From the IMG/VR virus record IMGVR_UViG_3300020171_000027, positions 1 to 62,764 of that record: a DNA stretch of 62,764 nt; one strand, given 5' to 3'. The stretch's first letter is position 1. The number at the start of each line of letters is the position of its first letter. The translations under genes and the position numbers were made by a program. Below, one piece after another: positions 32,381-60,000 of this stretch. Below the pieces are notes generated by a model. The model saw nothing but the letters and a program-made list of their open reading frames with translations, did no database searches and had not been told where the DNA came from. This stretch comes from a virus (Duplodnaviria > Caudoviricetes).

Positions 32381-33895
32381 TCATAATACTTGCTTTTGCC
32401 TACTCTTATGATAAGCAATAGCTCTATGTGTAAGATAGTTTTTAAAACCCTGATCAGGAATTATTGGAGCAACGTCTTTCATTCCTTTAGGCCAGCAACC
32501 CATTTTGGATTTATACAGATGAGAACTCCAGCCAGGTGCATAGTTTTTTAATCGGCGCTGATACTCGCACATGCCCATGAATTTGCGCTTTTCTTCCATT
32601 GTAAAGGTTTTTTTCTTGGTCTTGCCTCTGGTTATTTCCTGTAAATCGGCCTCTAAAACCTCAATTTTTTTACCATAGTTCTTGACTTCATACCCGCATC
32701 GAGGGCAAACTTTTCCCTTGAAAATATGCTGGCATTGATCACAGGCTAATGGCGGTTTTTCTTTTTTAGGTCGTTTCTTTTTCTTATAGGCTTGCTTGCC
32801 TTCTAATGTCCATTCGATATCATCCTCAATAAAACCTAATTCAGGGTTTAAAACACAATTCCCGTGGTCAATCACCATGCACTCAGTTTTTCCACTTTCA
32901 GGATGTGGTCTTAACCCCCTGCCTATACATTGCCGCCAGAGACCGACAGATTTCGTGCAACGAGCCATAATTATACAATTTGCTATAGGTGCATCTAAAA
33001 ACTCCTGAAACAAAGCAACATTAACAATCATTTGTACATCGCCATTATTAAACCTTCGTAAAACATCTGCTCTTTCTAAATCGTCAGAATGAGCATCGAG
33101 ATACTCTACCATAATCCCTTTTTTCTGGAATGAATCACATAAATATCGTCCATGCTTTCGATTGACTGCGAAACAAATTGTTTGGCGGTCGCTGGCCAGT
33201 CGAAACCAGTTCTCAACAATGTCTCCAACTAATTCAGAAGTATTCGACCGTTTTCCAAGCTCTTTAATATCCCAATCACCCCTTACTACTTTAACGCCTT
33301 TCATGTCTGGAGATGACCCGCCATAATATATACACCCAACAAGATGTCCTTCTTTAATTAACCGGCTTATTGGAACAACGTCCACAAGGTCATCATACAT
33401 CTCAGACATGGCAGCGTTTGAGCTTAAACACGGTGTTGCTGTTACTCCTATCGCTATTTTATCACTATACTTAGCCATAACCTCTTTAAAAACAGCACTC
33501 AACGACCTGTGACATTCATCCAGAAGCACCAGTGAAGCGTTTACATAGAATTGATTAAATTCTTCTGGTGCTAATTTCAACCGATTCCGATATGTCCATA
33601 CACTGCAAATTTGTATCGGCTTGTTGAAATCTGTCTCAACCCCGCTCATAATAATACCTGCTTCCATTCCATATTCTTCAAATTTCTCAGCGGTCTGAAA
33701 AGCAAGGTCTCTTCTATGCACAAGCAATAAAACCTTTCCTCCTTTTTCTACTGCCAATCTGCTTATTTCATAGAGTATAGCTGTTTTACCGAGTCCTGTC
33801 GAGCCAACCATTAGAACACGTTTATTCCCAGCCATAACAGAATTTCTGACAGCAGATATAAGCTCTTCTTGATAATCTCTTAAAATTAAACCCAA
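32381..33895 (-). CDS. Superfamily 2 DEAD/DEAH helicase with C-terminal Zn finger
   Basis: LRDYQ, TGLGKT, DECH, TAT, QCIGRGLR and CDQC...CPRC. Confidence 0.92.
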   Translation of the reverse strand: MGLILRDYQEELISAVRNSVMAGNKRVLMVGSTGLGKTAILYEISRLAVEKGGKVLLLVHRRDLAFQTAEKFEEYGMEAGIIMSGVETDFNKPIQICSVWTYRNRLKLAPEEFNQFYVNASLVLLDECHRSLSAVFKEVMAKYSDKIAIGVTATPCLSSNAAMSEMYDDLVDVVPISRLIKEGHLVGCIYYGGSSPDMKGVKVVRGDWDIKELGKRSNTSELVGDIVENWFRLASDRQTICFAVNRKHGRYLCDSFQKKGIMVEYLDAHSDDLERADVLRRFNNGDVQMIVNVALFQEFLDAPIANCIIMARCTKSVGLWRQCIGRGLRPHPESGKTECMVIDHGNCVLNPELGFIEDDIEWTLEGKQAYKKKKRPKKEKPPLACDQCQHIFKGKVCPRCGYEVKNYGKKIEVLEADLQEITRGKTKKKTFTMEEKRKFMGMCEYQRRLKNYAPGWSSHLYKSKMGCWPKGMKDVAPIIPDQGFKNYLTHRAIAYHKSRQKQVL

Positions 33896-34548
33896 TACTT
33901 TAATTCCCCTTGTTTTCTTGCTTTTTCGGCTTCTTTTATGGTATTAAAATATCCCAAACAAATCTGCTTATATTTTACTGTAATAGATGCCATGTATTTT
34001 TCAATTCGCTTGTGCCAACTAACACCATTAATTCCGGTTTTATTATTTTTCAATAATCTACGGTTTCTTACCTGATCTGTCATGGTTGCCCAAATACAAT
34101 TTTCTTTAAAATATCCTAAATTATTATCCTTGCGTTCAACTGTTAATTTTTTTGGGCATTTACCCATATCTTTTAAAAAGTTTTCAAAAATCAACCACCG
34201 GTCACAAACCTTAATGCCACGTCCTCCATACCGATAATAATTTTTATCTTTTATGTTATTACACCGCATAACCATGTGCATCCATGAATTATATGTACGT
34301 GTTTTACTCATACCATGTGTTTTATTATTTTCCCCCTGTTGCTTGGCTACTTCTTTCTGTAAACATCCACATGACATAGAGTTCCCACTACTTCGCCTTA
34401 AACTAATCCCTTTTACAACTCTAACTGTTCCACATTCGCAAAGACATTTCCAATATGTAGCTTTTTGTTTTCCACTCCCAGCATATTCGAGAACTGTCCA
34501 CCTACCAAACTTCTTACCCAACATCTCAATCTTAGCCACAATAATCAC
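33886..34548 (-). mobile_element. Free-standing HNH-AP2 homing endonuclease
   Basis: CLCECG...SCGC, YGGRGIKVCDRW, ERKDNNLGY...NC, and AP2 domain NKTGINGVSW...LGYF. Confidence 0.85.
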
Positions 34549-38979: not shown

Positions 38980-39210
38980 TCATGATTTCACCCTTATTTT
39001 CAGTAATGCCTGTGCTGGTATGTCGTAGGCTTTCATATATTTTAAGATTATTGCAGGGCTGATTGATCTTTGGTTATGAATATGCTTATATAAAGTGCTT
39101 GGAGTAACCTTGCTTTTTTTTGCCATTTGGGTGAGCGTAAGATTATTTTTCTTTTTGTATCGTGCTAAAATATTCAATTTATAATCTCCTTTCAAACGTA
39201 AGTTTATCAA
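38980..39210 (-). CDS. Cro/XRE-family HTH regulator
   Basis: LTLTQMAKKSKVTPSTLYKHIHNQRSIS, first gene of the leftward arm at a divergent promoter pair. Confidence 0.8.
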   Translation of the reverse strand: MINLRLKGDYKLNILARYKKKNNLTLTQMAKKSKVTPSTLYKHIHNQRSISPAIILKYMKAYDIPAQALLKIRVKS

Positions 39211-39300
39211 GGGTTAGCATTTTATTAAGGGCGTGTCAAGAAAAAAAAGTGTTGCCAACTAAAAATAATTGTTGACACGTATTTTGATATGTGCAATGTA
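39210..39300. promoter_or_regulatory. Divergent promoter pair
   Basis: TTGACACG on both strands (39232-39239 minus, 39272-39279 plus) around an A-rich spacer. The -10 boxes are weak. Confidence 0.6.
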
Positions 39301-39809
39301 AGAAGAAACTAAACAATGGAGGTGAATATGGAAACAACAGGATTAAATTTTTTAGAAGCGCATACGGCATTGATCGAAAGTAAGTGCGAGAAGATTGAAG
39401 CCCAAAGGAATCCTGGAATTTATTACTCTTGCAAAGATTTTCTCGGCGAATGGAAATTAATAGGAGTTAAGCAAAAGATTGAGGATGTTGGATGGCTGGA
39501 AGGAGACTGTCCCAATAGGCAAGTGTGCAGGGCAAGACTTACTCAAAAAGCCCAAAATGAAGATGACTTTGGAGTGGGTTGAAAAATGAAATCAATAGCA
39601 ACCATAATATTTTTAACAGCACTAATGACCTCCGTGGTGCTGATTGTAATTAATATTTTATGTCCATGACTGTCGGGGCTGACTGCAAAAAATAGGGAAG
39701 GTTATGTAGTTTGGCAAGGGTCGCAGGAGGCCCCGATTAACAATATCAGGGCAAATTGGCATGTTAATCACTGGTTATAAAGATTTACTAATTAAAGGAG
39801 AATTTTAAA

Positions 39810-40019
39810 ATGTCTAATACATCAAGTTCATCGTCAGGTATAGGAGTATGCGGCTTGTTGGGTGTTGTATTTATTACGCTTAAACTTACAGGATATATTA
39901 CATGGTCTTGGTGGTTGGTTACTTTACCTTTTTGGGGAGGTATAGTTTTTGTATTATTTATTTTAGCCTGTCTCTTTGGTGGCGCATGTATTAGCTATTT
40001 TTGCCGTAAATCTTTATAA
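39810..40019 (+). CDS. Small two-TM phage membrane protein (cassette A1)
   Basis: SSSSGIG..GLLGVVFITLKLTGYITWSWWLVTLPFW, a motif common in phage genomes. RBS AAGGAG. Confidence 0.8.
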   Translation: MSNTSSSSSGIGVCGLLGVVFITLKLTGYITWSWWLVTLPFWGGIVFVLFILACLFGGACISYFCRKSL

Positions 40020-40103
40020 TACAGCACTGGAGACCGACCAGAGAAGGCTATGCGATTTGGCGTAATCATCACGTGGCGGCTCAGTTATATCGTTAGGTGA
40101 CTT

Positions 40104-40367
40104 ATGAGAAAATTAATAACTCTTGTTTCAAGACTAAATGTGTTACTCAGTAGTGAGTATGCTATTATTCGCAGTGATCATAAAGTAATGAGTTCAGAAG
40201 AATATAAAACACTTAGAAAACTTTGCAATGATATTAATTCAGAACTCGAACGTCACCTAACCCAGCAGTGCAGCGGACGGGAAATAGCGGAGGCATTTTG
40301 CTTAGATTGTGGCTTTGATTATGGTTCATCAAATTGTCAGGGCTGTGAACATTATTCCCGCCGCTGA
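40104..40367 (+). CDS. Hypothetical protein (cassette A2) reading through its attC-like site
   Basis: The C-terminal CLDC...CQGC is encoded in the attC loop, and the stop lies in the L' box. Confidence 0.55.
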   Translation: MRKLITLVSRLNVLLSSEYAIIRSDHKVMSSEEYKTLRKLCNDINSELERHLTQQCSGREIAEAFCLDCGFDYGSSNCQGCEHYSRR

Positions 40368-40592
40368 CTTACATCGTTATCTGCTTTGATGGGGGTGTAA
40401 GAAATAGCTGTAAATATATATTGTCTTTCCGGAAAGATTCTATATAGACAGCAAACCGTGACGAAAAAACATAGAGACGTTCTATGCAGATTTCAAATTG
40501 GGTTTCTTACATCTCACATGAGCGCAGATAACACACCACTTGAGCTAATGGAAGGGTATGTGATAAATGTCAAAGATTATTGGAGAGTTAGA

Positions 40593-40889
40593 ATGAAAAG
40601 AATATCAGACGAAAAATTAAACGAGTTGATTGATAACGAAGGCGAGTTATCATCAGGGGCTATTTCTATAATGGGTGTTTTACGATTAGCTCTTGACCTG
40701 CGAGATGCCCGTGCTACAAAAGAGATACCAGACCAGCTATATATATGCCCTGTTTGTAAAGATAGAATATTAAAACCAGGATGCTGTCATAATCCATATT
40801 GTCATGATCGGCAATATATCTATCCGCCAAAATACGGTATTTGCCATAAATGCGGTGAGGTTACAATATTTTGTAAGTGTGAGAAATGA
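40593..40889 (+). CDS. Cys-rich hypothetical protein
   Basis: GGAGAG RBS before the ATG at 40593. Motifs CPVC, CHNPYC and CHKC. Confidence 0.6.
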   Translation: MKRISDEKLNELIDNEGELSSGAISIMGVLRLALDLRDARATKEIPDQLYICPVCKDRILKPGCCHNPYCHDRQYIYPPKYGICHKCGEVTIFCKCEK

Positions 40890-41347
40890 AAGTCTATTTA
40901 CTTAAAACAATATCAGGCTTAATTCCTTCGGACGCTGAATCTGACGAATGGTTTCATAAGCAAAAAACAGGCTCTGTTATATCGGCTGAAGTTAAGCAAG
41001 TTCGGAACTATGAGTTCCATAAAAAACTGTTTGCATTGTTTAACCTCTCCTTCGGATATTGGGAACCTGGTGAGATTGACTCAAAATATAAGAATCCTGA
41101 GAAGAGTTTTGAACGGTTCAGGAAGGATTTAATAATTCTTGCAGGCTACTATAAAACAGAAATTAGATTAGATGGTTCGGTAAGGGTTGAAGCTGAATCA
41201 ATATCGTTTGCTTCAATGGATGCCAATACGTTTGAAAAACTCTATCAGAATGTTTTAACTGTAATAATGAAACGAATACCAGTGCTTGATAAAATGACTA
41301 AAGAAGAGATTGACGATTTGGTTAATAAATTTCTGGCCTTCGCATAA
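40886..41347 (+). CDS. DUF1367 family protein
   Basis: RNYEFHKKLFALF...FERFRKDLIILAGYY...SISFASMD. Confidence 0.85.
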   Translation: MKVYLLKTISGLIPSDAESDEWFHKQKTGSVISAEVKQVRNYEFHKKLFALFNLSFGYWEPGEIDSKYKNPEKSFERFRKDLIILAGYYKTEIRLDGSVRVEAESISFASMDANTFEKLYQNVLTVIMKRIPVLDKMTKEEIDDLVNKFLAFA

Positions 41348-41616
41348 TGCCACCACATGAAAAGATGAAAATATACCGGTCAGTAAAATACTTGAAATGG
41401 ATACGATCAAGACCTTGTATTATATGCAGGAGGCCGTCTCAGGCACACCACGTTCGACGATCTTATTGGGGGAGTGGTATAGGTATCAAACCTCACGACT
41501 ATGTTACGATACCGTTTTGTATTGAATGTCATTCGCCAGATACCGAAAAAGATTTGAATGTAGAGTTGATAATAATTAATTTACTTATGGAATACATAGA
41601 AGGGTTAAAGAAATGA
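41347..41616 (+). CDS. DUF968-like HNH-type Zn-finger protein
   Basis: YLKWIRSRPCIIC...AHH...GIGIKPHD...IPFCIECH. Confidence 0.8.
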   Translation: MPPHEKMKIYRSVKYLKWIRSRPCIICRRPSQAHHVRRSYWGSGIGIKPHDYVTIPFCIECHSPDTEKDLNVELIIINLLMEYIEGLKK

Positions 41617-41898
41617 AGCTCATAATAAAAAAAGATAAAAACCGATCGATATTTCACTGGATACCGTCCATTGTAACAATTAAGTTTCCCAAGGGTGAGT
41701 CGTTAATATTCACTTGGGGATATTATATTTTTGTTTTGAGGGATAAACAATGGAACTAACTAACGACAAACTTCAACTCGCATTTAACGCATGGCTACTG
41801 GACTACCGTTCGTTTGCCTGGGAGGGTTTAGAAGCAGAAGAACGACTGGTTTTAAGCGACTATCACTTTAATAAGTTTATGAAGGAGGTTGAGGAATT

Positions 41899-42147
41899 AT
41901 GAAACTAAATAAACCAAGGATTTCAATAAATGATGATTACGCCGTTCTAAGCACTAAAAATGCCAGTTTCTACTATGGTTATGAGGTTAAAATCAACGAA
42001 ATGTGCTGTTTTGAGGCAAAATTTAATGATGAAAAAATTACCATACCATTTGCAAAGCTGGGAGTTGAAGACGAATGGGATGTGGTTGAATGCCTTATGA
42101 TGGGCATTGGATTAATACTTGCTAAATATAAATTAAAGGAAACTTAA
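41899..42147 (+). CDS. Hypothetical protein
   Basis: GAGG RBS, 82 aa. Confidence 0.55.
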   Translation: MKLNKPRISINDDYAVLSTKNASFYYGYEVKINEMCCFEAKFNDEKITIPFAKLGVEDEWDVVECLMMGIGLILAKYKLKET

Positions 42148-42944
42148 AATGGCTAATTTTATACTTTATAGCGATGCAATAAAATATTGTGAGAGATATG
42201 GTTTTAAAGTTCCTGGCAATATCAGCCCTTTTGGTGTTGCCGAGGCCTTATTGCGTGCTTATAAAGCCGGCTCAAAAAAACATAATGTTAAGGCTGGTCG
42301 AATTCTGCCTGAATTTTGTCAAGATTGTAAAGACGAATTTGGGCATCCTGATAATTGTATTGGATGTGATCATGTTTAAACTTAACAATTTCCGTCTGTC
42401 AATGGTGATTTGTGGTTGTGTTGGGGTGGTGATATTGTGTTTGAGTTATTTATTTTAATTATGAAAAAGCCGCAAAAAATACCAGCGAGTATAGTTAGGA
42501 AATGCTTAAGCCATACTACGGAGGTGATGGAATGGAAAACATGGCAATAAATATTGTGATAGATGATTCCGATATGCCACATCATATCTTTGTTGAAATT
42601 GAAACGGATAACGGAGAGTCGATTAACATTGGAACTTGGAGCGGTAGTGATGATGGTTTGAAAAAAATACGAATTACAGCAGCAGATATCATTAATCATA
42701 TAAAAATATGATATATAGAAAAAAATGAAACAAATGAAACTCACGCCAAAAGAAAAAGCTGAGTTAAAAAGAATCAGCAAGTATTTTCTTGAAGCTACGG
42801 AAATTATAGATGATACAGAGTTGAGAGCAATGGTAAGTGTAAAGATATTATCACGGGTAAGTTGTTTAGCTGATAAGCTGGTTAAGAAATGATTAAGCCT
42901 AAAATAATACTTGACAGAAAAAACAACTTATGATAGGAAAAGAT

Positions 42945-43106
42945 ATGAGCATTAAAAAGCTAACCTGCAAAAAATGTAATTATTCTTGGTGGCCTCGTAC
43001 AGACAAGAAACCAAAGTTGTGTCCGGCATGTAAGAGCCGAAAATATGATGAAGATAAAAAAACGGAGGTAAAGCATGAAAGAAGAAATAGTAATAAACGC
43101 ACTTAG
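42945..43106 (+). CDS. 53-aa Zn-ribbon protein, probably leaderless
   Basis: MSIKKLTCKKCNYSWWPRTDKKPKLCPACKSRKY... Its ATG lies 5 nt after a TTGACA-17 bp-TAGGAA promoter (42911-42939). Below the ORF-track size cut-off. Confidence 0.7.
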   Translation: MSIKKLTCKKCNYSWWPRTDKKPKLCPACKSRKYDEDKKTEVKHERRNSNKRT

Positions 43107-43433
43107 AAAGGCACGGATATACATAAACACCGTGCAAACTTGGCATCGACTGCCGGTTACACAAAAACCGGACATGGATACGTTGCTGGACACGTGGACA
43201 GCAGGCGGGGAAGTTGAGGCTATTGACAGTGCGTTACAAGAGTTTGGGATTATAATATAGGAGGTGAAGGATGAAAATAACAATTAAAATAAGCATCACT
43301 GAGGCAAGAGACATCATCAAAGATCATGTTATACAACAAATCCCTATAAATTTTACAGACAAAGAAATATATGTGTCTGGTTCATATGGTGAGTTTACGG
43401 TTGAGATCACGGAAAAAGCTGAGGAGGTGACAG

Positions 43434-44399
43434 ATGGAATTAATCAGGTATAGTATAAACGAGGCAGAGATTGCAAAGATGTCAGATATTTACATGGGGC
43501 TTACCGTCAAAAGCCTTGACGATGAAGAAGGTCTCGCCGCAGTGCATTCAGCAAGGATGGTTATGGTAAAGCACCGGGTTGGAATTGATAAACTTCGTAA
43601 AAGTTCAAACGAAGAAGCACAGGCATTTATCAAGAACAACAACAATAACGCTAAGAAGTTACTTGCTTTGATTGAGCCGATTGAGAATCACCTAAAAAGT
43701 GAAGAGGGAAAGATCGAGGCTGAAAAGGCAAGGATTAAAGAAGAGGCTGATCGACTTGAAAAAGAAAAGATTCAGTCCCGGGTTGATGCCCTATTTGCCG
43801 TAAATGTTATTTTGCCTTTTATGGACGTGGCTATAATGACAGAGAAAGATTTTGAAAATTTGCGACAAAGATCAGAGGGAGCATTTTTTGCTGAAAAAGC
43901 CAGAATCGCAGAAGAGATCAAAGCCCGTGAAGAGGAAGAAGCCAAACTCGTTGCAGAGAGGGCTGAGATAGAGCGTATTCGTTCCGAGCAGGAAGCCATA
44001 GCAAGGGCACAGACAGAAAGAGAAGAGGCTTTAAAAGCGCAAGAGAAGGACATTGAAGATGCCAAACGTGCCGAAACTGCGAGAAAAGAACTTGAAGCTC
44101 TTGAAAAACGACTTGCCACAGAAGCTAAGATTCAGGCTGAAGCCGATGCCAAAGCAAAGATTGAAAGAGAAGCCAGAGAGAAAAAAGAAAAAGATGAGGC
44201 TGAAGCCGCTGAGAAAGCAAGGCAGTTAGAACTTGCCCCGGACAAAGAGAAGTTACTTTTGTTCGCTGATAAAATTCAAACCTTAACTGAAGGCAATCTT
44301 AGCTTAAAATCAAAAAAAGCCAAGAGAGTGTTCAGCGATACTTTAAAAGCTATTTTGGGAGCTGCTGAATATATCCGCATAGAAACAAAAAAGCTATAA
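43434..44399 (+). CDS. Long coiled-coil protein of the recombination module
   Basis: E/K/A/R-rich 321 aa ending in LAPDKEKL, upstream of ERF. Confidence 0.75.
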   Translation: MELIRYSINEAEIAKMSDIYMGLTVKSLDDEEGLAAVHSARMVMVKHRVGIDKLRKSSNEEAQAFIKNNNNNAKKLLALIEPIENHLKSEEGKIEAEKARIKEEADRLEKEKIQSRVDALFAVNVILPFMDVAIMTEKDFENLRQRSEGAFFAEKARIAEEIKAREEEEAKLVAERAEIERIRSEQEAIARAQTEREEALKAQEKDIEDAKRAETARKELEALEKRLATEAKIQAEADAKAKIEREAREKKEKDEAEAAEKARQLELAPDKEKLLLFADKIQTLTEGNLSLKSKKAKRVFSDTLKAILGAAEYIRIETKKL

Positions 44400-44414
44400 T
44401 GTTTATGGAGGTAA

Positions 44415-45221
44415 ATGATGACTGAAGAACTTACAAAAGAATTAAAGATAGTTGACAAGAGGGTAGGTTTTAATGAAGCCCAGAACCTTCCAACAGCTCC
44501 GACCGATGTTATCATGGCTGCCATACAAAAGGGATATACGCCTGAGTTTATTGAACGAATGATGTCGCTACAAGAAAGGTTTGAGGCGAATGAGGCCCGG
44601 AAGGCATATACTAAGTCAATGTCAAAGTTTAAGGCTAACCCTCCTGAAATTCTTAAAACCAAGCATGTTTCATATCAAAATAGCAAAGGGCAAACAGTAG
44701 AATGGGATCATGCAGTTCTCGGAGAAATTACAGAAGCAATCATTAAAGGTCTATCTGAATACGGATTTTATCACAGATGGGATACAGCCCAACCTGATAA
44801 TTCAAAAGTTGTAACCACATGTATAATCACACATGAACTTGGTCATAGCGAAAGCACTTCGATGTCAGGGCCACCCGACACAAGTGGGGGCAAAGACGCA
44901 TTAAAATCGGTATCATCCACAAATACTTTATTACAAAGGCTAACATTGCTTGCATTGACAGGTCTTGCAGCTAAAGGAATAGATAATGAGAGTCCTGGAG
45001 ATGATAAAATAAGTCTTCTCGAACAATGGGAGATTAAATTAGATGAGGCCGGAGCCGCTGCGAAGTCGGTAGATGAAATAGCAACTTGGTGGAAAAACAA
45101 TTCTTCTACTATCAAGAAAGAACTCTCAAAAGCTGATGCTGCAAAGATATATGAGAAGGTGAAGGTCTATAGTAAAAAGGTAGCTGTGCCTGAGAGGAAA
45201 CCCGGGTCTGATGATAATTAA
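44415..45221 (+). CDS. ERF-family single-strand annealing protein
   Basis: EANEARKAYTKSMSKF, VTTCIITHELGHSE, and SSTNTLLQRLTLLALTGLA. Confidence 0.85.
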   Translation: MMTEELTKELKIVDKRVGFNEAQNLPTAPTDVIMAAIQKGYTPEFIERMMSLQERFEANEARKAYTKSMSKFKANPPEILKTKHVSYQNSKGQTVEWDHAVLGEITEAIIKGLSEYGFYHRWDTAQPDNSKVVTTCIITHELGHSESTSMSGPPDTSGGKDALKSVSSTNTLLQRLTLLALTGLAAKGIDNESPGDDKISLLEQWEIKLDEAGAAAKSVDEIATWWKNNSSTIKKELSKADAAKIYEKVKVYSKKVAVPERKPGSDDN

Positions 45222-45233
45222 GTGGAGGTCTAA

Positions 45234-45845
45234 ATGTCAATTATAATTGATTGCATTCAGGGAGATGAGACTTGGAAAAAATGCAGACTCGGACGACCCA
45301 CCGCATCGAATTTTGGCCGAATATTGACAGCTACAGGAAAAGTATCTGAAAGCCGAACAGCATATATGATAGAGCTTGCGTGTGAGTTTGTATCAGGCAG
45401 AAGTGAAGAAAACTATACATCTTATAGAATGAAAGAAGGCAGCCGACTTGAAGAAGAATCGTGCCAAGTCTTTGCCATGAACCACGAAAACCTTGATGTC
45501 CGTAAAGTTGGGTTTGTTTTCAAAGATGAGCGTAAGCTTTGTGGATGTTCGCCGGATAGGTTGGTTGATGATAATGGAATTTTTGAAACGAAAGATGCAA
45601 AATTCACAATTCAATATGATAGACTTAAAAAAGGCACGATGGTTACACAACATATTCCACAAGTACAGGGTGAAATTTACTGTTGCGAAAGGGAGTATGG
45701 TTTTTTTCAAAGCTATTGTTCCGGGCTCCCAGAGTTATGCATCAAAGTTTACCGTGATGAAAAGTACATATCACAGCTCGGAGAGGAGATTGAGAAATTT
45801 AATTATGAGCTGGCAATCTTAGTAAACAAATTAAAGGCAATGTAA
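45234..45845 (+). CDS. YqaJ/lambda-exonuclease family protein
   Basis: QGDETWKKCRLGRPTAS, GCSPDRLV, ETK and PQVQG. Confidence 0.9.
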   Translation: MSIIIDCIQGDETWKKCRLGRPTASNFGRILTATGKVSESRTAYMIELACEFVSGRSEENYTSYRMKEGSRLEEESCQVFAMNHENLDVRKVGFVFKDERKLCGCSPDRLVDDNGIFETKDAKFTIQYDRLKKGTMVTQHIPQVQGEIYCCEREYGFFQSYCSGLPELCIKVYRDEKYISQLGEEIEKFNYELAILVNKLKAM

Positions 45846-45854
45846 GGAGAATAT

Positions 45855-46289
45855 ATGTCTGATTTAAATCAGTGTAACTTCATAGGCAGGGTTGGCAAAG
45901 ACCCTGAAATCAAATACACACAAGATGGAACAGCCATAGCTAACTTTTCAATAGCTTGTGGAGAGTCCTGGAAAGACAAGGCAGGCAATAAACAAGAAAA
46001 GACGAGTTGGGTTCGCTGCGTCGCTTGGCGTAAATTAGCTGAGATTATTGGTGAGTACGTCCACAAGGGTCAGCAGATTTTCGTATCCGGCAAATTCACC
46101 ACAAGAGAATGGGAGAAAGACGGAATTAAGCGATACATGAGCGAGATAGTTGTTAGCGATATGCAGATGTTAGGTAGCAAATCAGATTCACAAGCCAAGT
46201 CAAAGCCAGAGCCAGAGCAGAGCCAACAACCATCAGCGGATGAGCAGAAAGCATATGGTGCTGGAGACGACGATCAAATTCCCTTTTAA
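45855..46289 (+). CDS. ssb: Single-stranded DNA-binding protein
   Basis: NQCNFIGRVGKDPE OB fold and acidic DDDQIPF tail. Confidence 0.96.
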   Translation: MSDLNQCNFIGRVGKDPEIKYTQDGTAIANFSIACGESWKDKAGNKQEKTSWVRCVAWRKLAEIIGEYVHKGQQIFVSGKFTTREWEKDGIKRYMSEIVVSDMQMLGSKSDSQAKSKPEPEQSQQPSADEQKAYGAGDDDQIPF

Positions 46290-46631
46290 TATTTACAATA
46301 AATGCAAGAGGTTATGATTATGAACGATGATTATAAATATGAAACAGAGCGTTATGATGATATCAATTTAGATGTCGATGACTACACAACCAGAATAGTC
46401 AAATCATTCTATCAAATTGTAGGATTAGTAGATAATATAAATGTATATAAGCGAAGAGCTGAAGAATATCCTGCTGTTATTTCAAAAAAACACGCTAACG
46501 GAGTACAATCGTTTTTGGAGAATGTAGGAGATAACCTTCAGGATTATGAATCTTTATTTAACGAAATGGACGAATAATATCAGGGCAAATTGGCATGTTA
46601 ATTCATGGTTATACAACAAAAGGAGGTTACA

Positions 46632-47009
46632 ATGGATTTAACTGCAAAAAATGTGACAGACATCTTTATGGACTGCTTATTTAGAGATGGTGAAGATACA
46701 TCAAACCCTGTAATAGCCGAAGGAATTACGTCAAAGTTCGGTTTTCATAAGGAGCGACTAAAATCGCACATAGATGATATTGCAAACATGCTTTCTCAAT
46801 TACCGAAAGAGTTTCAAAAAGAGTCCGGTGGAGGAATGTCATTTTTAAACGCCTGTAATAATTTCAATGGTGAACAATGGACTGGACTACATGAAGTAAT
46901 GGAACAACTTTTTGCAGTTGGATTGGCATCTGGAAAGGCTCAGTGTTTAATGCCACGTAACATGTGGGCTGTCTTGCCTGGCGGAATGCCGTATTACGTT
47001 GTTGTATAA
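46632..47009 (+). CDS. Conserved phage hypothetical protein (cassette B1)
   Basis: AGGAGG RBS. Motifs GGGMSFLNAC, GEQWTG and LPGGMPYY. The stop TAA lies in the inverse core site. Confidence 0.8.
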   Translation: MDLTAKNVTDIFMDCLFRDGEDTSNPVIAEGITSKFGFHKERLKSHIDDIANMLSQLPKEFQKESGGGMSFLNACNNFNGEQWTGLHEVMEQLFAVGLASGKAQCLMPRNMWAVLPGGMPYYVVV

Positions 47010-47122
47010 CACACAGATGCAGCGGATTGAGGATTTATAACACACCACTGGAACCAACCAAAGAAGGCCGTGCCGTTTAGCATAGGCATCACTTGCCGCA
47101 ACTGATTACGATGTTATACTAC

Positions 47123-47416
47123 ATGAAATATAGAACACAGTACATAAAGAAAAACTGGAAATTGATAATACATTTATTGCTTGGGACATATTATTTCGGA
47201 GTAAACAATCAATGGTGGGTAGATTTTCCTTCCATGTTTGGAAAACCTTGGTATTTAAAAATTAATCCTTTCCAGATAAGGAGAAATTATAAAGGTATGG
47301 AATTCAGAGCAGTGGCCTGTTATTTTGTTGCAAAACCTTGGCTACTATTTCCTAAACATCCTAAGTATAACCAGCCGCTTGACTCTGACGGCAAAAAGCC
47401 GCCGCAGGTCAGCTAA
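47123..47416 (+). CDS. Hypothetical protein (cassette B2) reading through its attC-like site
   Basis: The C-terminus NQPLDSDGKKPPQVS is the translated attC palindrome. Confidence 0.55.
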   Translation: MKYRTQYIKKNWKLIIHLLLGTYYFGVNNQWWVDFPSMFGKPWYLKINPFQIRRNYKGMEFRAVACYFVAKPWLLFPKHPKYNQPLDSDGKKPPQVS

Positions 47417-47434
47417 ATCGTTAGGAGGCTTTAG

Positions 47435-47671
47435 ATGAAAACAGAATGGGATGTTGCCGATGAAATAATTGAAGAGGCTTATCCTGGATGGAAAAACGTT
47501 CCAAACAGAAGAATTCTACTGAAAAAGACTGAATGGAGCTATAAGGCTATAGAGGATTATTATTGTGGAGAATGTATCCATTTTAAAAATCTACGATGTC
47601 TATATAAAAAAATGAGACTACATCCTATGTCGATAGCTTGTGAGCATTTTAAACAAAACGAGATCATCTAA
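47435..47671 (+). CDS. Small Cys-motif protein
   Basis: Its RBS AGGAGG is supplied by the GTTAGGAGG core site. Motif CGECIHF...C...ACEHF. Confidence 0.6.
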   Translation: MKTEWDVADEIIEEAYPGWKNVPNRRILLKKTEWSYKAIEDYYCGECIHFKNLRCLYKKMRLHPMSIACEHFKQNEII

Positions 47672-47848
47672 TTAAAGGAAGCAATATGAAATCAAAGGTA
47701 GAATTACATGTAAACTTGCATGATGCCTACGCTAAATTATTAAGACTCTGTTTGCTATTAGACTTAGACGCATATTATAAGGATTTGCAAAGAGGCCGGT
47801 TATTTATGTCTAATATGGTAGACCGCTCCGACTATCCCAAAGGACACC

Positions 47849-48313
47849 ATGATAAAAAGAGCAAAGTTTTCAGATGATAGAAAATATCGTTACTCTTTAG
47901 AAAGAATTTGGCTTTGTAGACGGCCCTATGTTTGTTTCGTCTGTTTAAATCCTTCTACGGCTGACGAAAATTTCGAGGATCCTACTATTAGGAGATGTAT
48001 TCGTTTCTCCTCCGATTGGGGTTACGGTGGCCTTGTAATGGTTAATCTGTTTGCTTTTTGTGCAACTAATCCTAAAGACCTCTATAAAGAATCAGAACCT
48101 ATTGGCAATGAAAATGACGATTATTTGCGAAGAATAAGTCTTAATGCTGGCTTGACGATTGCTGCTTGGGGAAACGATGGTAAGCATATGAAACGTGGAG
48201 AAAATGTACTTCGATTGCTAACAAATCCACAATGTTTAATTCGTACAAAAAGCGGCCATCCTGGACATCCATTATTTTTAAAAGCTAACATAAAACCAGT
48301 TCCTTTTTTATAA
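47849..48313 (+). CDS. DUF1643 family protein
   Basis: YRYSLERIW...LNPSTAD...DPTIRRC...NLFA...AAWG...PGHPL. Confidence 0.9.
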   Translation: MIKRAKFSDDRKYRYSLERIWLCRRPYVCFVCLNPSTADENFEDPTIRRCIRFSSDWGYGGLVMVNLFAFCATNPKDLYKESEPIGNENDDYLRRISLNAGLTIAAWGNDGKHMKRGENVLRLLTNPQCLIRTKSGHPGHPLFLKANIKPVPFL

Positions 48314-48384
48314 AGAAAATGATTTATCAGAATTTATCAGGCTGGTAATTAATCGCCGCCGGTGATGGCGAATGTTAGAATGAA

Positions 48385-48947: not shown

Positions 48948-49604
48948 TTATTTCCAATAAAGTTCTTCGGCTTCTTTTCTCGCTATTGCCGCCTCTTCTA
49001 ATGTGTTATAAAGACCTATATAGTATCTTTTATAATTTACTTTAATCTGTACACAATATTTTTTGTTTTTCTTAGCAAAATGGACTCCGCTTACACCAGT
49101 TTTGTTTTTTTTGCTTAATCTTTGATTGCGTCTTTGCGCTGTTCGAGTATCCCAGCAACAATTCTCTTTGAAATATCCCAGTTCGTTATTTTTTCTCTCA
49201 ATGGTCAAACATTCTTCTGATTTTTCTCCCATATCTTCAAGAAAATTCTCAAACTTTAACCAGCGATCACATATAGTAATTCCACGGCCACCATAATGAT
49301 AAAAATTTTTATCTTTTGGATTAGTACATCTTTGTTTTATGTGTCCCCACGCCTCATACGTAGCTGTTTTATGCATTCCGTGTTTTGTAATACTTTCTGT
49401 CCAAAGACAACCACAACTTTTAGTATTACCCCTAAAAAGATTTTTCTTTCCTACAATATGGGTATTCCCACAATCACAGATACATTCAAAATGTAACCTG
49501 CCTTTTATCTTACCAACATCTTTAATTACAGTAAGACGCCCGAACCTATCTCCAGTTTTTATGTTGACTTTTCTTCTGGGATTATTTATAGATACTTTAG
49601 TCAT
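48948..49604 (-). mobile_element. Free-standing HNH-AP2 homing endonuclease in the lysis block
   Basis: CICDCG...KSCGC, YGGRGITICDRW and an AP2 tail. AAGGAGG RBS before MTKV. Confidence 0.85.
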
Positions 49605-49736
49605 GGCAAATTCCTCCTTAATAGGATTTGTTATTGATGAGAAGCAGGCGAAGAACCGATCTTTGTCTGCTTCGTTATTTGTAATAAAGGTTTGTATAGA
49701 AGTCAACATATTATTTCACAAACTTTCTCGACCATT

Positions 49737-54068: not shown

Positions 54069-57000
54069 TTACTCCTTTTCTAAATATCGTTTTATTTTTT
54101 CAGTTCTTTGCTTTTCTAACCGTTGAATCATTTTACTTCTAATTTCTGTCTCTTCCATACTTTTTAATTTATTGATTCTTTTTCTATATATATTTAATCC
54201 ACCTTGAAACTTATTTAATCGTCTTAATTCAGCAAGTTCTTTTCTATACTCACGGCGAAACTCTGCTTTATCCTTGCTTGTTTCAAGAGCGTCATTGATT
54301 TCATTTAATTTAGCTTTTTTCTTTCTTAATTTATTATCCCAAAATTCTTCATCACTTCCAGTAAACTGGCTGATGGCAACAGGTGTAAACTGTTTCTTTA
54401 GCTTTTTAATTCCTTTGTATTCGTCAGTTGTTTTATATTGTTCTCCTTGGAGAATTAAGGTTAGATTAATACCCAATTTTTCAACAAACGAAGCTGTCCT
54501 GCCAGCCGTTAAAAACATACTTGGTTGTAATGCCTGAATTAAAGTAGTGGCCTCTCTGTATGCTTTGTTTATTATTTTACCAACAAAACTTTCATCGTCC
54601 TCATCCCTTACCATGCCAAATGTCAGCATAACAAAAGCTGTAATCTCAACAAGCCGATATAGTTCTACCATAGATTTTTTAAATTCTGCTTCACTTGGTT
54701 TTTGGAAAGTTAGTTTTTTGCCCAAATTACCAAGATTTTGTATTGTCGTTCTTAAAATTGGAATAGCCCATCTCTTATATTGAGTGTAAGCCCTTCCTTC
54801 TGGAGTTGCACCAATAACAGACTTCATCCCTCCAACCATTCTATACCGACCAAGTTCTGTTCTTAACGCAGCTAATTTTTCAGGAGATATTTCTCCTGCT
54901 TTAAATTCTTCTTTAGACAGAGATCCTAATAAAAAGGTTTTATTAGACCTTACAGAAGCATCCTTAAATAAAACAAAAATTCCCTCCATCAACCTATCGC
55001 CAACCTCTTTCGCTGGTTCTGCCAATTCTTCCCAAGGATTTTTTCCTATAAGATTGCGATATTTTTCTATAATTGATTTGCCTTGTTTTGTATTTTGTCT
55101 TAATTTACCAACAACAAATTTTCTTTTCCCAAGTAGCTGATATGTAGTTATTTGCTCTCCAACTTCAGTAGCAACACTTACAGGAATGTTTAACCCCAAA
55201 TCTCTTAAAGATGTAAACATTTTAATCGCTCTTAATGCCGCATCTATTTTTCCGTTTTGCTTTGCAATTAAGGTTATATGACGACCTTTTTGAGTATTGA
55301 TCCATTCTTTTACAAACTTGATTAAATTTCCATGCAATAATAATCCTTTTTTAGTCATACCTTTGGGCGTGAGTGCATGGGCATAAATGTCAATTAAAGG
55401 AGTTATTTCATCTAATGCCTGCTTCTTTTTAAATGTACGCATGTATGTTAAAAAGGCTTTTACAACATTTTCAGTTGGCTTCAGTTTCCCGGTTCTGTGC
55501 ATAGCAAATTTAAAAAACTTATCCATTGCTAAAATTTGACCAGTTTCTTTATCTAATATATTAAAAGCTTGTTCATCGAGCTTATAGGACTCAAACTGTT
55601 CTTTAACGGCTTTGATTATTCCATCTTCTTTGGTAGCTTCTAATATTCCCCTCCGGACATGAGTAAAATAGTTCTCCTTTCCCATATTCATTGCTTCTAT
55701 TTGCAATAAATAATCCCTGGCATCAGAGAAATGTCTGGTCATGTATTCAGCCATTGCCATTTCTGCTTCAGATAACCCAACCTCTGCTTTTTCATTAGCA
55801 GGAGCTTCCATAAACTTTCTAATATTTTTATGTTGAGGAACAAAAAAACCAACGCCCTTTAACTTTTTAGCTAAAGCGAAAATGTCTTTCTCTATTTTTA
55901 AATATTCGGCTTCTGAAACAAGCATTCTTTTTGCTGTTTCTTCAACCATCATTTTATAAAAGATATTCTTTTCAGCCAATCCGGTTTCGTATCTAAATCT
56001 ATCAAATTCCGATACTTTAATACTTTGTAGTTCTTTTACAGGAACTCCGAGCTTTTCAGACAATCGCTCTCTGGCTTCTCTCCAAGTCTTAATTCCTTTT
56101 AATTCTGTTCTATCAACTACTTCTAATTTTCTGACCGAAAGAAACTCATCACCCTTTTGGAATGGTTCTAAGGCTTCATCTAACTTTCTAATCTGCCCAA
56201 CGGTCATATTTTTTAGCGTTGGGAGCTTCATAGCCTTGCGTAAGTTTTCGATATTTAATTCTTTTTCTTGAATTTGCGACATTAATTCGTTCATGGCCTG
56301 GCGTCTTACTTCAACTTTTTCAGCTCTTAATCTTATGCCATCAATATATTGTTTAAATTCATAATTGCTCATAAAACGAATATCTTTACCAGAAATCTGT
56401 CTTAATTCTCTATCAGTTAGATTAAAATGATCTCTGGCTGCCCTGATAAACTCTCTGCGTCTTTTGAGAATTTCCTTTTCGGTTTTTATCTTTTCTAATT
56501 TAGTTTCAGCACTTTTTAGCTTGGCTTCATATCGGTTAAGAACTTTTATGTAATCTACACCATACTCATCTGCTTTTACCCTGCTGAATATCGGAGGCGT
56601 TACATCATCTATAGCGTCAACATTGTCCCTTGTAGCAAAAGCATATAAAACTCCATCCAGATATTCACGAAGCTCGATTATATCTTTAAAATATTTTGAG
56701 GAGCCAAAACCTTCTTTTGACATCTTATCAGATACACCTTTTAGCCAAGATATAACTGTTTTCATAAACCTCTTAAATACACCGGCATCATCTCTCGCAA
56801 AATATTTTAAGAAATCAGGGTCAGCTAAGGCATCGCCTGTAAAATCAGCAAGGAGTTCTGTTTCTATTTGATCACGTGGTAAAGAACTTTCTCCGGGTAA
56901 CATGGTTTTGTCAAAGGCTTCCCTAAATTTTTCAAACTCCACAAAATGCAATCTCGCCTTACTGATAAACGTATTATAGAGCGTTGAATTATCACTTTTG

Positions 57001-60000
57001 ATTTTGTGTAATAATTCATGGCCTGCAAGCTGGACGAATCCTTTGATAGCATTTGGGTCAATGAAAAGATTTCCTTTGTAAGTCTGTCCACCAATTCTTC
57101 TAAATTTTTCTTTTGTTGGGGTAACGGTAATAATTTTTGTTTTGAAAACGGATTCAAAAGCTCTGGCAACGCTTCTGGTAGCATCTGGGACATCTTTTTC
57201 GATGACATAGGCATTCTCCCATTCCTTCCCTAATTGTTTAGCAAGTTGAGTATTTAGGTCTCGTACTAATTTGTCTTGTTCAATGGCAGGCTTGGTAGCG
57301 TACTTAGGTTGTTCTTTTTGTGCTTTGTTCCAGATATCGATTATTTTTGATTCTTTTAATATAGCCTCTTCATTTAAAACAATCATTCCATCTGATGTAT
57401 AAATGCCATCTATCCCTTTATCTTCTATAGCTTCCCAAAAAATATCAAATAATTCTGGACTATCAAAAACTCCCGCTGAATCTACAATATCTTCAGAATC
57501 TAATTCTTCAGATAATTTTTGGGCTGTTTCTTCAATTTCTTCGCTTTGCCTATATGAATCTAATATCTCTTCATTTTCAGGATTTAATAATTGTTCTCTA
57601 AAAGCATCTTTTACTGAACTAATGTTTACAAAGTTAAATTTCCCTATAATATTCGGTACAAATAGATTTTTGCCATACTTGGAAATACTTTCCCTATCTT
57701 CTGCGAACATAGCATAATTAACATCTCTGAATGGACTTTCTGTGTTTGTTCTTCTAAAATATCCAAAACTATCAACAAACTCGTCAGCCGTCTTATACTT
57801 TCGTGCTTCTTGCTCGATAGTTTCTTTCAGCTCAATACTAAAACTCGTTCCCTCACCATCAGTAACAATCCAGTCTTCACGAGGTATGCCCTGAGCTTCG
57901 TAAGGCATGGTTTCTCTGCGTTCTTCTGCGGTTAGTTTTGCACGGGCGGACGTGTCTCTGGCTTCTATTTCACCGGCAAGGTTCATATAGGCTTCTGTTG
58001 CATTTTTAGGAAGTTTATTTTGACGCTGAATTTCTTCCATTGCAGAAACAACAGTAGCATAACCTGGATATTTTTCTTTAAGTCTGTTTTCTTCTACTTT
58101 TAATTGTGCATTTGTATAATCCTTATTATCTGCCAACCATTTATAGATTTCTTGCTCAACTGCTATCCCTTCTTTTGTTTTGTCGTAGTTATCAATGGCT
58201 TCTCTATAGCTTTCTATTAAAGCAGTATCTTTAAAGGCAGTTTTGAATGCCATTTCAGATGGTGATGAGCCACGAGCAAAGCCGGAGATTTCTTGGATGG
58301 CATGTTGGATTTCGTGGAGCAAGGTTTCTTTAAGCTCTTTCCCTTTTGTCATAAAACCACGAGGAAAAACTATCGAATTTGTTTCAGGCTCATATTCCCC
58401 TTTTGAATCTTCAATATAATCACTTCTGATTTTTATTTTACGTAATTCTGGATATGCTTTAAATAAAACCTTATGGTCTATCAAATCATCAAGTGTCTTA
58501 ATCTCTTTTGAGTTAATTTTGATATACGCAGGAGTTCTTTCAGTTTCTTTTATTTCTGCACCACTATCATCAATCTCCCACTTCCAAGTCTCTTCTTTCT
58601 CAACGCCTTTCAGCCATCCAGTTTCTTTCCATACCTCTTTCTCGCTCTTACCTTCCTTGAGCATTTCCTGAGCTCTAACAAGTGCGCCAGTAGGTGCGCC
58701 TATGGCTTTTTTGCCTGCCATTGCGTATCTTATATCGGGATTAGTTGGGTCAAACTCTGTGTTGAATATGGATTTTATTTGGGTAGGTTCAAAGGCTACA
58801 TAGGAAGTTCCACCAAATTCTGTATCTTTCACAATAATCCCATCATACCCTTGTTTTTTTATTTTTTCTATGTTTTTCCCAAGGCTCCAAAAATTTCCTT
58901 TCCATTTTTTAGGGTTTTGTAATGATAAATAAACAGGCATCCCTATATCTGTTGCTGTTTGTTCTGATATGTCTTGATCTGTAAACCAAAAACCAGCCTT
59001 AGCCATTTTTAAACTATTTATATCATCTGTATTTATTTCGGTTGTAAACCCAAGCATTTCTTTGTCAAATACTGTAAAATCTGTATCTGTCCAGTGTATA
59101 ACCATTAATGGCTCGCCCTTTTTATTAACAACCTTACTATCACCAAACCATTTTACAAACTTAGGATTATCTCGAATATTAACAACAGCCTTCTTTAAAG
59201 AGAAACTCACATCCTGAGCAAACTGATTAATGCCTGAAACCTCACCACCCATTTCTCTCTGAAAGATTGCACCAGATTCAAATTGTCTTGTGATGCCTCT
59301 CGAAGTAGTAGTAAACAAATTAACAAACGAGTCTATGAAATCAGCAATCTTATCAAGTATTGTTCTTATCGTGCCTTTGTATTTTGCTCGGTTCCTTACT
59401 TCTGTTTCCATGAAATACGCTTGGTCTTCTTCACCGCCTATGTTTTTTTCGTTCTGTGTCTTAAACTTTCCTTGCCTTACAAGTTGCCTTATCTTGAATT
59501 TAAGCACTCTTAACTCTTTTGGTGTAGCAAGACCTAACTTTCTAATAATATGCCAACCTTCGTGAGCTACCGTCCATTTATCGCCTATTCCTTTGACGAT
59601 CTCAATAGTATCATCCTCGAACTTGCCTGCAATTAACTCACCGTCAGCTCTCATCCGGCCACGTGCTGTCTCAAAGGCCAGCTTGTTTTCGCTTATGTGG
59701 GTTACACTTTTGACTTGGAAGCCGTAACCGGATTTGAGTTTTACCCAGATATTACCGTCTTTGGATAAACCGGATGGAGCTTTGAATATGTCTCGTACTT
59801 GTGATAGGTTTATTTCTGAGTCGGATATTCGTTGTTTGGTGGCATAGAAAGTGTCTTCCATTGGAGTAGTTGAGATAATTTTATCTTTATTAATAATCGC
59901 AACAGTAGTCCCTCTTCCCTCTGGTTCAACAAAACGACCGCCATCGTATCCAGCTTTTTTCAGGTTTTTTATAAAGGCAGGATCTTCAAAAGCTCCCTGT

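Follow-up and report, generated by a model that had tools for sequence, protein, structure and literature searches.

The phage record IMGVR_UViG_3300020171_000027 (Duplodnaviria; Caudoviricetes; 62,764 nt, the whole of which is referred to here as the window) carries two copies of a conserved box of about 35 bp, consisting of ATCAGGGCAAATTGGCATGTTAAT, a free 3-nt spacer and TGGTTA, and an integron-type cassette array lies behind each copy. Conservation is confined to this discrete box, which occurs with many different flanks and whose right edge is the cassette crossover point. On balance it is probably an attI-like double-stranded acceptor site that is served in trans.

An exact, non-random repeat, the 27-mer AATATCAGGGCAAATTGGCATGTTAAT, occurred in exactly two exact copies, both on the + strand, at 39742..39768 (copy 1) and 46576..46602 (copy 2); two matches were obtained in none of 100 dinucleotide shuffles of the window, and a third copy was absent from the window at up to three mismatches. 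Copy 1 was followed by CACTG and copy 2 by TCATG, with GTTATA next in each case, which bears out the repeat pair, the 5-nt gap and the GTTATA core reported in a first-pass annotation of this DNA. A repeat search extended the similarity to 41 nt at 90 % identity (39739–39779 vs 46573–46613), beyond which the outer sequence was unrelated on either side, as that annotation had also stated. In copy 1, where the unit conserved across contexts spans approximately 39743–39777, the variable spacer (CAC), the invariant TG and the GTT crossover core occupy 39769..39776 on the + strand; in copy 2 the corresponding spacer (TCA), TG and GTT core occupy 46603..46610 (+ strand), and the copy's first two bases also complete the stop codon of a 91-aa gene (46302–46577). 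Across the four contexts that could be read, the spacer (CAC, TCA, ATC or CAA) and all flanks varied, and 24 nt together with TGGTT were unchanged. The box lacks a left hairpin arm: no significant fold was found at either copy (z = −0.4 and 0.0), and its five upstream flanks were unrelated.

At copies 1 and 2, as well as in two metagenome loci (L021 and L020) that are described below, the box stood at the head of an array, and its terminal GTT core was the starting point of the first cassette. The claim that the 27-mer opens the arrays was correct in that arrays follow both copies, but copy 1 does not begin the + strand block, which starts at a divergent promoter/operator region near 39210–39330. 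The units of the arrays, all on the + strand, began at the joint between G and TT (G/TT) and finished in a folded attC-like site. The first cassette of array 1 (39775..40092), whose start TTATAAAGATT complements its own left box at 9/9 positions, encodes a 69-aa membrane-like protein (39810–40019; phrog_1374) and ends in site E2 (40014–40098), a member of the attC-like family. The second (40093..40376) has a 10-nt inverted repeat (GTTAGGTGAC / GTCACCTAAC; left box 8/9) and an 87-aa Cys-rich ORF (40104–40367), the 3' part of which overlaps the folded attC-like site E3 (40255–40382); its start recurs in a related phage, L025. The third (40377..40587), with a 9-nt inverted repeat (GTTATCTGC / GCAGATAAC), contained no + frame ORF of at least 30 aa and ends in a short attC-like site, E7 (40526–40593). 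In array 2, the first cassette (46609..47113; 12-nt inverted repeat) encodes a 134-aa protein (46605–47009; phrog_26039) and has a composite attC-like region, E4 (47004–47119), and the second (47114..47420), whose left box GTATAAC complements GTTATAC at 47113, carries an ORF within 47093–47416 and the attC-like site E5 (47365–47426; fold z = −2.2).

In an integron cassette, the left box of the attC site (xxxxAAC) complements the first bases of the same cassette (G/TTxxxx), because free cassettes are circular. This relationship was scored in 13 cassettes (five from the window, four from L021, two from L020 and one each from the related phages L024 and L025), which include one orthologous pair, win_d1 and L021_D, by reverse-complementing each left box and comparing the 9 positions that follow its GTT. 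The left box matched the start of its own cassette at 88 of 117 positions, compared with 46 of 117 for the start of the next cassette; shuffled pairings gave a mean of 47.9 (sd 6.6), and 88 was reached in 0 of 20,000. The array units thus obey the circular-permutation rule of cassettes. At both copies, the first 9 positions after the box GTT paired with the left box of the first cassette at 9/9, which places the joint between box and cassette at G/TT.

The attC-like sites constitute one family: R'' pairs with R', a spacer stays unpaired and the L stem is bulged. The consensus fold of 10 sites contained 15 pairs, nine of them with compensatory changes on both sides, and two bulged positions in the left arm; the z-scores of single-sequence folds were mostly weak (−0.2 to −4.45). 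All three window matches of the right-arm motif, and likewise all three of the inner left-arm motif, fell inside the two arrays, and a looser outer left-arm motif (AAC + 6 nt) gave two extra matches in the terminal repeat. Classical attC sites have the boxes RYYYAAC and GTTRRRY and, on the bottom strand, the bulges G and T. AAC and GTT were present at every site here but one (AAT at 40018–40020), many R' boxes (GTTATAC, GTTATCT) have T where GTTRRRY calls for R, and the predicted bottom-strand bulges are C and T, as opposed to the G and T of classical attC. As to the spacing of an attC right arm, which the first-pass annotation had noted at the 27-mer, the inner TTA-to-GTT gap exceeds that of the main attC-like family by 3 nt (period 11 vs 8) and is near the value for the 134-aa cassette of L021, whose attC is short. 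The further statement of that annotation, that no R'' box precedes the repeat, held at copy 2 and not at copy 1, where an R''-like heptamer, GATTAAC, abuts the copy upstream; since neither copy 2 nor L020 has this heptamer, it lies outside the conserved unit.

Searches with a 22-mer of the box matched three metagenome loci (L019, L020 and L021), of which L019 and L020 are the same sequence. In L020 the box was followed by a GC-rich cassette and then by another cassette, which has an inverted repeat of 13 nt and whose 127-nt hairpin site (z = −3.0) ends in GTTAGCC. Contigs of individual sequencing runs provided further contexts. In run X2, two contigs were unrelated to the phage before the box and two after it, aligning only from 39743/39744 to 39777/39778; in run X5, two contigs matched the box only, with unrelated letters after it; and a contig of run X3 carried the 91-aa gene and the box as far as 46602, followed by about 300 unaligned letters. 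In every context the right edge of similarity was GTT(A). At least five unrelated upstream flanks were found, none with a left arm, so that the box is not the interior of a complete attC, and variable cassettes do follow it, with at least six different downstream sequences starting at or just after GTT; both points had been left for other genomes to decide.

The exact 27-mer and the E2/E4 core pattern each gave no matches in the viral contig set, and the box was not found at up to seven substitutions in loci L003–L018. Two sets of matches were rejected as chance: five of the attC-family pattern in the genomes of 185,579 species, which came without a left box, and one of TTGGCATGTTAATNNNTGGTT in viral contigs, to a single AT-rich phage (L022, identical to L023), where the match straddles the junction of two minus-strand genes.

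L021 derives from a relative of the phage (76 nt at 92 % and 429 nt at 85 % identity) and has the box followed by four cassettes, the fourth of which is the 134-aa cassette of the window. The first cassette of array 2 and L021 1748–2168 are 85 % identical, with homology from GTT on, and the position of this cassette within its array differs between the two related phages. In run X5, five contigs diverged after 47423, past the GTTA of E5. Both the 134-aa cassette and the contigs of other runs indicate that cassettes are moved whole, with the breaks falling at G/TT. In L025 a cassette of the same family is inserted without a box in front, and the L024 contig breaks off at the array head; the records behind these two loci contained no match to the box at up to three mismatches.

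No integron integrase and no PF00589 match were found in the six frames of the complete phage, nor any PF00589 match in those of two related records (60 % and 52 % complete). A Pfam scan of 74 ORFs likewise revealed no integrase, and none lay within 2 kb upstream of the box in L020. Adjacency to intI, which the first-pass annotation had coupled to its reading of the box as an attI-like acceptor or a fixed half-site, was accordingly not borne out: it is absent in the phage and absent within 2 kb in L020, and the box pattern had no match in one genome each of 185,579 species. That reading drew its support instead from the flanks and the G/TT joint. The lack of an integrase in cis would also suit an inert passenger (a relict attI, or an attC of which nothing but the right arm survives), imported with ready-made bacterial integron arrays and now functionless in the phage, as would L020, whose composition differs and where the same box is followed by an array with attC sites of textbook appearance. 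We consider this origin unlikely. The 24 nt and TGGTT are invariant, although the homologous flanks of L021 are only 85–92 % identical, and an invariant box amid a varying spacer and varying flanks indicates constraint rather than recent copying. The two arrays, moreover, hold different cassettes, and cassette positions vary between relatives.

A 29/32 look-alike of the box was present in non-coding, motif-rich DNA that follows the RNA polymerase gene in relatives of Erwinia phage Y2; the carriers are Erwinia and Pantoea phages of the Chaseviridae, and the look-alike comes without TGGTT or cassettes. Together with a sigma-70-like arrangement on the reverse strand of both copies (TTAACA-16-TATTGT or TATTAT, with TG before), it would be compatible with an early-region promoter, operator or protein-binding site that is a neighbour of the arrays by chance. 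Pint, for comparison with a leftward promoter in the box, lies inside attI1. Such a purely regulatory role is nevertheless highly improbable, since no + strand promoter match was obtained at the box, a leftward transcript from either copy would be antisense to + strand genes, and the E value of the Erwinia match (0.02) was near that of chance matches in a plasmid search (0.06). It would also leave unexplained both the invariant spacer between the promoter hexamers and the similarity edge at the cassette crossover in every context. By eye, the box also fitted none of the consensus sequences of a sigma-54 promoter, an IHF site or a LexA box.

Between the two copies lies an ERF–YqaJ exonuclease–SSB module (44415..46289, + strand; Pfam and PHROG matches), comprising ERF (44415–45221), a YqaJ-type exonuclease (45234–45845) and SSB (45855–46289); the gene coordinates confirm that the copies bracket it, as had been proposed, together with about 20 further small genes. 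NinB is also encoded by the phage (Pfam/PHROG), and relatives identified through ERF (L012–L015; 46–68 % identity by blastp) share the 321-aa, ERF, exonuclease and NinB genes but are too distant for a comparison of sites. Two direct copies of 27–41 bp that bracket a recombination module, in a phage encoding ERF, YqaJ exonuclease, SSB and NinB, could be taken as a short conserved boundary, comparable to the stem-loop repeats of T4-type phages, at which these proteins of the phage would swap modules between co-infecting phages by homologous recombination, including the 6.8-kb segment between the copies; L021 does join the upstream flank of copy 1 to cassettes that are found in array 2 of the window. 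We give very little credence to this explanation. Similarity always stops at GTT(A) on the right, at the inverted repeat of the first cassette, which is a signature of site-specific exchange, and of the 15 joints listed out of 28, none connects the two copies.

A second type of repeated hairpin, E1 (39667..39741, + strand, identified by its fold), abuts copy 1 upstream and lies outside the conserved box. Three whole or partial E1 copies flank extra ORFs in L021, and joints were observed at 39668, in E1, in sequencing runs X1 and X3. Elsewhere in the window, TATCAG repeats near 48325 were not clearly above chance (a match in 8 of 100 shuffles). No Rfam family and no tRNA gene was detected in the window.

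If the box is an attI-like acceptor, an integron-type tyrosine recombinase that is not encoded by the phage, and is presumably the host's, would bind it; we infer both the identity of this enzyme and its action in trans. The box would be used as duplex DNA, its 3' half (GGCATGTTAAT-N3-TG-GTTA) perhaps mimicking an attC right arm in duplex form. The recombinase would then recombine the box with a free circular cassette at the folded attC-like hairpin of the latter, and the cassette would enter between G and TT of the box GTT, so that new cassettes would accumulate directly behind each box. Early rightward transcription of the phage would read the inserted cassettes, and their insertion may still be ongoing in this phage.

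Classical attI sites (attI1 and others) are double-stranded, stand at the head of the array, offer a GTT core for insertion and have no left hairpin arm; they adjoin a divergently transcribed intI and its promoters. The box shares with them its position at the array head, the terminal GTT core and the lack of a left hairpin arm. It differs in that no intI was found and in that the conserved unit has a sharp, portable left edge. Promoter-early stem-loop (PeSL) repeats of T4-type phages reportedly flank small accessory early genes and probably drive their shuffling, through homologous recombination and with promoter activity of their own. The arrays described here resemble them in having short repeats beside small accessory genes in a phage early region; unlike PeSLs, the exchange points are fixed at G/TT and the units carry folded attC-like sites. 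The closest precedent for a box in two copies, as the prophage is described in the source, is the attI of Shewanella prophage M16-3, in which a Shewanella-type attI opens both arrays, one of them without an adjacent integrase (Qi et al. 2023, PMC9892861). In both cases one short site ending in GTT, about 28 nt long in M16-3, heads two arrays. M16-3 is, by that description, a prophage with an intact IntI and a known Shewanella attI, whereas the phage here is without an integrase, its box is unrelated in sequence to the M16-3 attI, and the box also has many unrelated flanks elsewhere. According to the same paper, clusters of attC sites lacking an integrase (CALINs) in virulent phages have attC sites that are functional with IntI1 in trans (PMC9892861). 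They are like the present arrays in having co-oriented cassettes with attC sites and no intI; unlike for the phage box, no conserved acceptor site appears for them in section 3.4 of PMC9892861.

What is described here is a short putative acceptor site that is intact in several unrelated genomic settings, and twice in one integrase-less phage, with gene cassettes behind it that differ between close relatives. In integron surveys, platforms are defined by the integrase gene, attI is annotated for few known classes, and arrays without an integrase are usually regarded as debris. If the box is active, its sequence would offer a simple means of detecting such platforms in metagenomic data and of retrieving the cognate integrase, and phages could acquire and exchange small early genes with the help of an enzyme of the host; these genes are likely to serve host takeover or anti-defence. 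More tentatively, and with the odds rather against it, the 35-bp box could be a portable docking module, complete in itself and sharply delimited on its left side, that nucleates arrays wherever it lands, the recombinase always acting in trans. In that event the enzyme may not be a classical IntI, the module would spread among phage and bacterial genomes, and phages would sample the host cassette pool through orphan acceptor sites in their early operons without an integrase.

The 27-mer claimed at two sites by the first-pass annotation was present in exactly two copies in the window, at 39742–39768 (copy 1) and 46576–46602 (copy 2), both on the plus strand, and none of 100 shuffles gave two matches. 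The claimed arrangement of 5 nt and then GTTATA behind it was also found, as CACTG and GTTATA at copy 1 and TCATG and GTTATA at copy 2. The repeat around the copies covered 41 nt with 90 % identity, including three further, partly matching bases upstream. When the four readable contexts of this box were aligned, an invariant ATCAGGGCAAATTGGCATGTTAAT was followed by a 3-nt spacer that was different in each (CAC, TCA, ATC and CAA), an invariant TGGTT and then unrelated sequence. The variable spacer inside an invariant unit, together with the identity of only 85–92 % in truly homologous flanks, argues for a box under constraint rather than recently copied.

Contigs of four groundwater sequencing runs (X1, which may be the source sample of the window, X2, X3 and X5) were aligned to positions 39300–48300, and show presence, not frequency. 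At least two contigs of X2 matched only from 39743/39744, with unrelated letters before, and at least two matched only up to 39777/39778, with >250 unrelated letters following; at least two contigs of X5 departed from the window after 39777. A contig of X3 was 89 % identical over a 91-aa gene and copy 2, aligning to 46602 and continuing with ~300 unaligned letters. On sequence comparison, the box is a discrete conserved unit, with its right edge at the cassette crossover point, and heads arrays in at least three independent settings.

Three units were counted behind copy 1 and two behind copy 2, each with integron-cassette anatomy. Each begins at the TT of GTT, mostly has a ribosome-binding site of its own and a single small ORF, and terminates at its 3′ end in a structured element with xxxxAAC as its first bases and GTTxxxx as its last. 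Directly before AAC, the unit has the reverse complement of its own start rather than of the sequence that follows its GTT; a blind scan covering the window recovered the corresponding exact inverted repeats of 10, 9 and 12 nt, and a fourth repeat was 14 nt with AAT replacing AAC. This rule was counted over 13 cassettes, two of them mutual orthologues (five from the window, four from L021 and two from L020, both metagenome loci, and one each from the phage records L024 and L025). Over the nine positions beyond GTT, 88 of 117 matched the start of the same cassette, whereas 46 of 117 matched that of the next; shuffled pairings had a mean of 47.9 (SD 6.6), and 0 of 20 000 reached 88. Such own-start complementarity is the signature expected of units whose free form is a circle that opens between G and TT. 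At least five contigs of X5 departed from the window after 47423, the GTTA of E5, the site that ends the second cassette of array 2.

Contigs of run X1 joined 40591 to 40885 with seven ambiguous letters, bypassing a 98-aa zinc-ribbon-like ORF (region 40592–40885), and other contigs joined 47440 to 47698 (region 47441–47697; the sequence content between the ends was not readable). The genes just past the last attC-like site of each array are therefore also variable between populations. Directly upstream of copy 1, at 39667–39741, lies a hairpin of a second type (left arm ATGACTKTCGGGGYTGACTGCA, right arm GCAGSAGSCCCCGATTAA), whole and partial copies of which occur in L021 at 50–76, 465–548 and 815–830, flanking two extra ORFs. 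Several joints in X1 and X3 fell at 39668, and one returned 42 nt, from 39692 to 39651; this hairpin is possibly a further hot spot for insertion.

A 22-mer from the box matched three metagenome loci (L019, L020 and L021). L021 is a fragment, 2.5 kb long, from a relative of the phage: over its first 76 nt it has 92 % identity with window positions 39617–39692, 818–865 matches the copy 1 region, and 1748–2168 shares 85 % identity with the 134-aa cassette behind copy 2. Of the four cassettes behind its box the first two are new, the third begins with the same 16 nt that, in the window, come behind the final attC-like site of array 2, and the fourth is the 134-aa cassette, preceded there by an attC-like right arm and in the window by the box; the homology begins at GTT in both. 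L019 and L020 are the same sequence, which outside the box has no relation to that of the phage. The first L020 cassette is GC-rich and encodes a 342-aa protein with DUF2726, with a 57-nt hairpin site; the second has a 13-nt start exactly complementary to its own left box and a 127-nt site ending in GTTAGCC (fold z = −3.0). Cassettes behind the box differed between the window, L020 and L021, and contig flanks varied. Upstream of the L020 box, ~300 nt of AT-rich DNA contain, on reading by eye, a TTGACA-17-TATAAA match facing the cassettes. Also upstream, at 2380–2890, is a broken, weak IS200-like or REP-associated transposase remnant with flanking CCCCGG(G)GAATTCCGC-type repeats.

Joint folding of ten attC-like elements gave a consensus in which TAAC pairs with GTTA, with an unpaired spacer of 5–6 nt, a stem with two bulged left-arm positions and a variable loop. 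Nine of its 15 predicted pairs keep pairing despite changes on both sides, and single-site thermodynamic z-scores were mostly weak (−0.2 to −4.45). All three window matches to the right-arm motif and all three to the inner left-arm motif were confined to the two arrays; for the outer left-arm motif, which is looser, two additional matches lay in the terminal repeat. At least some contig joints, several among those listed, linked left and right arms of the family through different loops. L024 has two sites of this family, with a 9-nt inverted repeat in the intervening cassette, and L025 a single cassette, inserted without a box in front, whose start is identical to that of window cassette 2. 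Some R′ boxes of the family, and the identity of one bulged base, differ from the classical attC consensus.

In the contexts compared, the box is not the internal part of a complete attC; it lacks a left arm and forms no fold. Its 3′ half, GGCATGTTAAT-N3-TG-GTTA, resembles an attC-like right arm; that of the main family, GGCTCAGTTATATC-GTTA, has a period 3 nt shorter, and the short site of the L021 134-aa cassette, GGCTGATTAAGGACT-GTTATAC, has about the same spacing as the box. Such a layout, an attC right arm copied as duplex DNA and joined to a constant upstream part, would be expected of an attI-type site.

The window, 62 764 bases long, constitutes a complete virus record and has a direct terminal repeat of 127 nt. 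Among isolated phages, its large terminase is closest to those of Pseudomonas phages of the H66/F116 type (51 % identity), and tailed-phage genes for an SU10-type adaptor and a capsid protein are encoded. A polyvalent protein of 2897 aa with ART-PolyVal (ADP-ribosyltransferase) and LPD23 domains is encoded at 54069–62762 on the minus strand, its ORF extending to two bases from the window end. The minus strand carries most of the genes; a rightward block (~39.3 to 48.3 kb, plus strand) contains NinB, a small HNH protein, ERF, a YqaJ exonuclease, SSB and many small ORFs. Between its start and a 76-aa HTH gene (38980–39210, minus strand), the divergent control region 39210–39330 contains TTGACA-type hexamers together with an inverted repeat (CGTGTCAA ... 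TTGACACG), and is likely to be an operator and promoter pair. At the end of the block, 48325–48384, TATCAGAATTTATCAGGCTGGTAATTAAT is followed by a small GC hairpin and GTTAGAATGAA, an 11-mer also present behind the last attC-like site of array 1 (40587–40597). This stretch is loosely like the left part of the box, the double motif being matched in eight of 100 shuffles, and could represent an acceptor site that is degenerate or empty, a terminator or a chance likeness. Two HNH endonuclease genes (33886–34548 and 48948–49709, minus strand), paralogues that match the AP2 domain weakly, have a 118-nt stretch in common (73 % identity); these and a third small HNH/DUF968 gene (41347–41616) are possible homing endonucleases.

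As direct repeats, the two box copies flank a 6.8-kb segment holding ERF, the exonuclease and SSB, whose exchange they may conceivably mediate, as the first-pass annotation suggested. In L021 the upstream flank of copy 1 is joined to cassettes that sit in array 2 in the window, a joint consistent with box-to-box recombination as well as with the ordinary movement of cassettes. No joint between copies 1 and 2 was among those listed for the four groundwater runs.

The discreteness of the box, its right edge at the crossover, its position at array heads, its lack of a left arm or fold and the likeness of its 3′ half to an attC right arm lead us to regard it, with moderate confidence, as an attI-like acceptor site that an integron-type recombinase would use in trans. 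The acceptor claim of the first-pass annotation thereby gained comparative support, but no enzyme was found. No tyrosine recombinase was detected in the window among 74 ORFs compared with Pfam or in a six-frame search with PF00589, and no intI gene was seen by the box, in any of the three phage records (two of them 60 % and 52 % complete) or within 2 kb upstream of the L020 box. The 27-mer had also been proposed for a search in bacteria, and neither the box pattern nor the attC-family pattern identified a bacterial genome among 185 579 species representatives. Also counting against an attI-like site, the reverse strand of the box is readable as a sigma-70-like promoter, the L025 cassette has no box in front and the attC-like family deviates from the classical consensus. 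A 29/32 look-alike of the box was found in Erwinia and Pantoea Chaseviridae phages, in non-coding DNA with abundant GCATGT motifs, with neither TGGTT nor cassettes behind it; as its E-value (0.02) is not far from the 0.06 of chance matches in a plasmid search, it is probably chance. In Erwinia phage Mauresque (2440–3000; same region in Y2) it lies in a 1.2-kb non-coding region after the RNA polymerase gene, with at least eight copies of GCATGTnA and several of ATATTGTGACAA, one of which matches the box region at the 29 of 32 positions.

Qi et al. (2023; PMC9892861) describe 17 integrase-less attC clusters in phages, virulent ones included, and attC sites that were functional with IntI1 in trans. 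In the Shewanella prophage M16-3 of the same account, a 28-nt Shewanella-type attI heads a complete integron as well as a second array, the same layout of one site heading two arrays as in the window. The window phage differs from M16-3 in having no integrase at all, a new site sequence and a record that is not a prophage, and its box differs from the M16-3 attI in occurring with many unrelated flanks in other DNA. Titles and abstract openings in the literature yielded no description of a portable orphan acceptor site. A bolder and distinctly more tentative reading, which we consider rather unlikely, is that the box may be a portable docking module.
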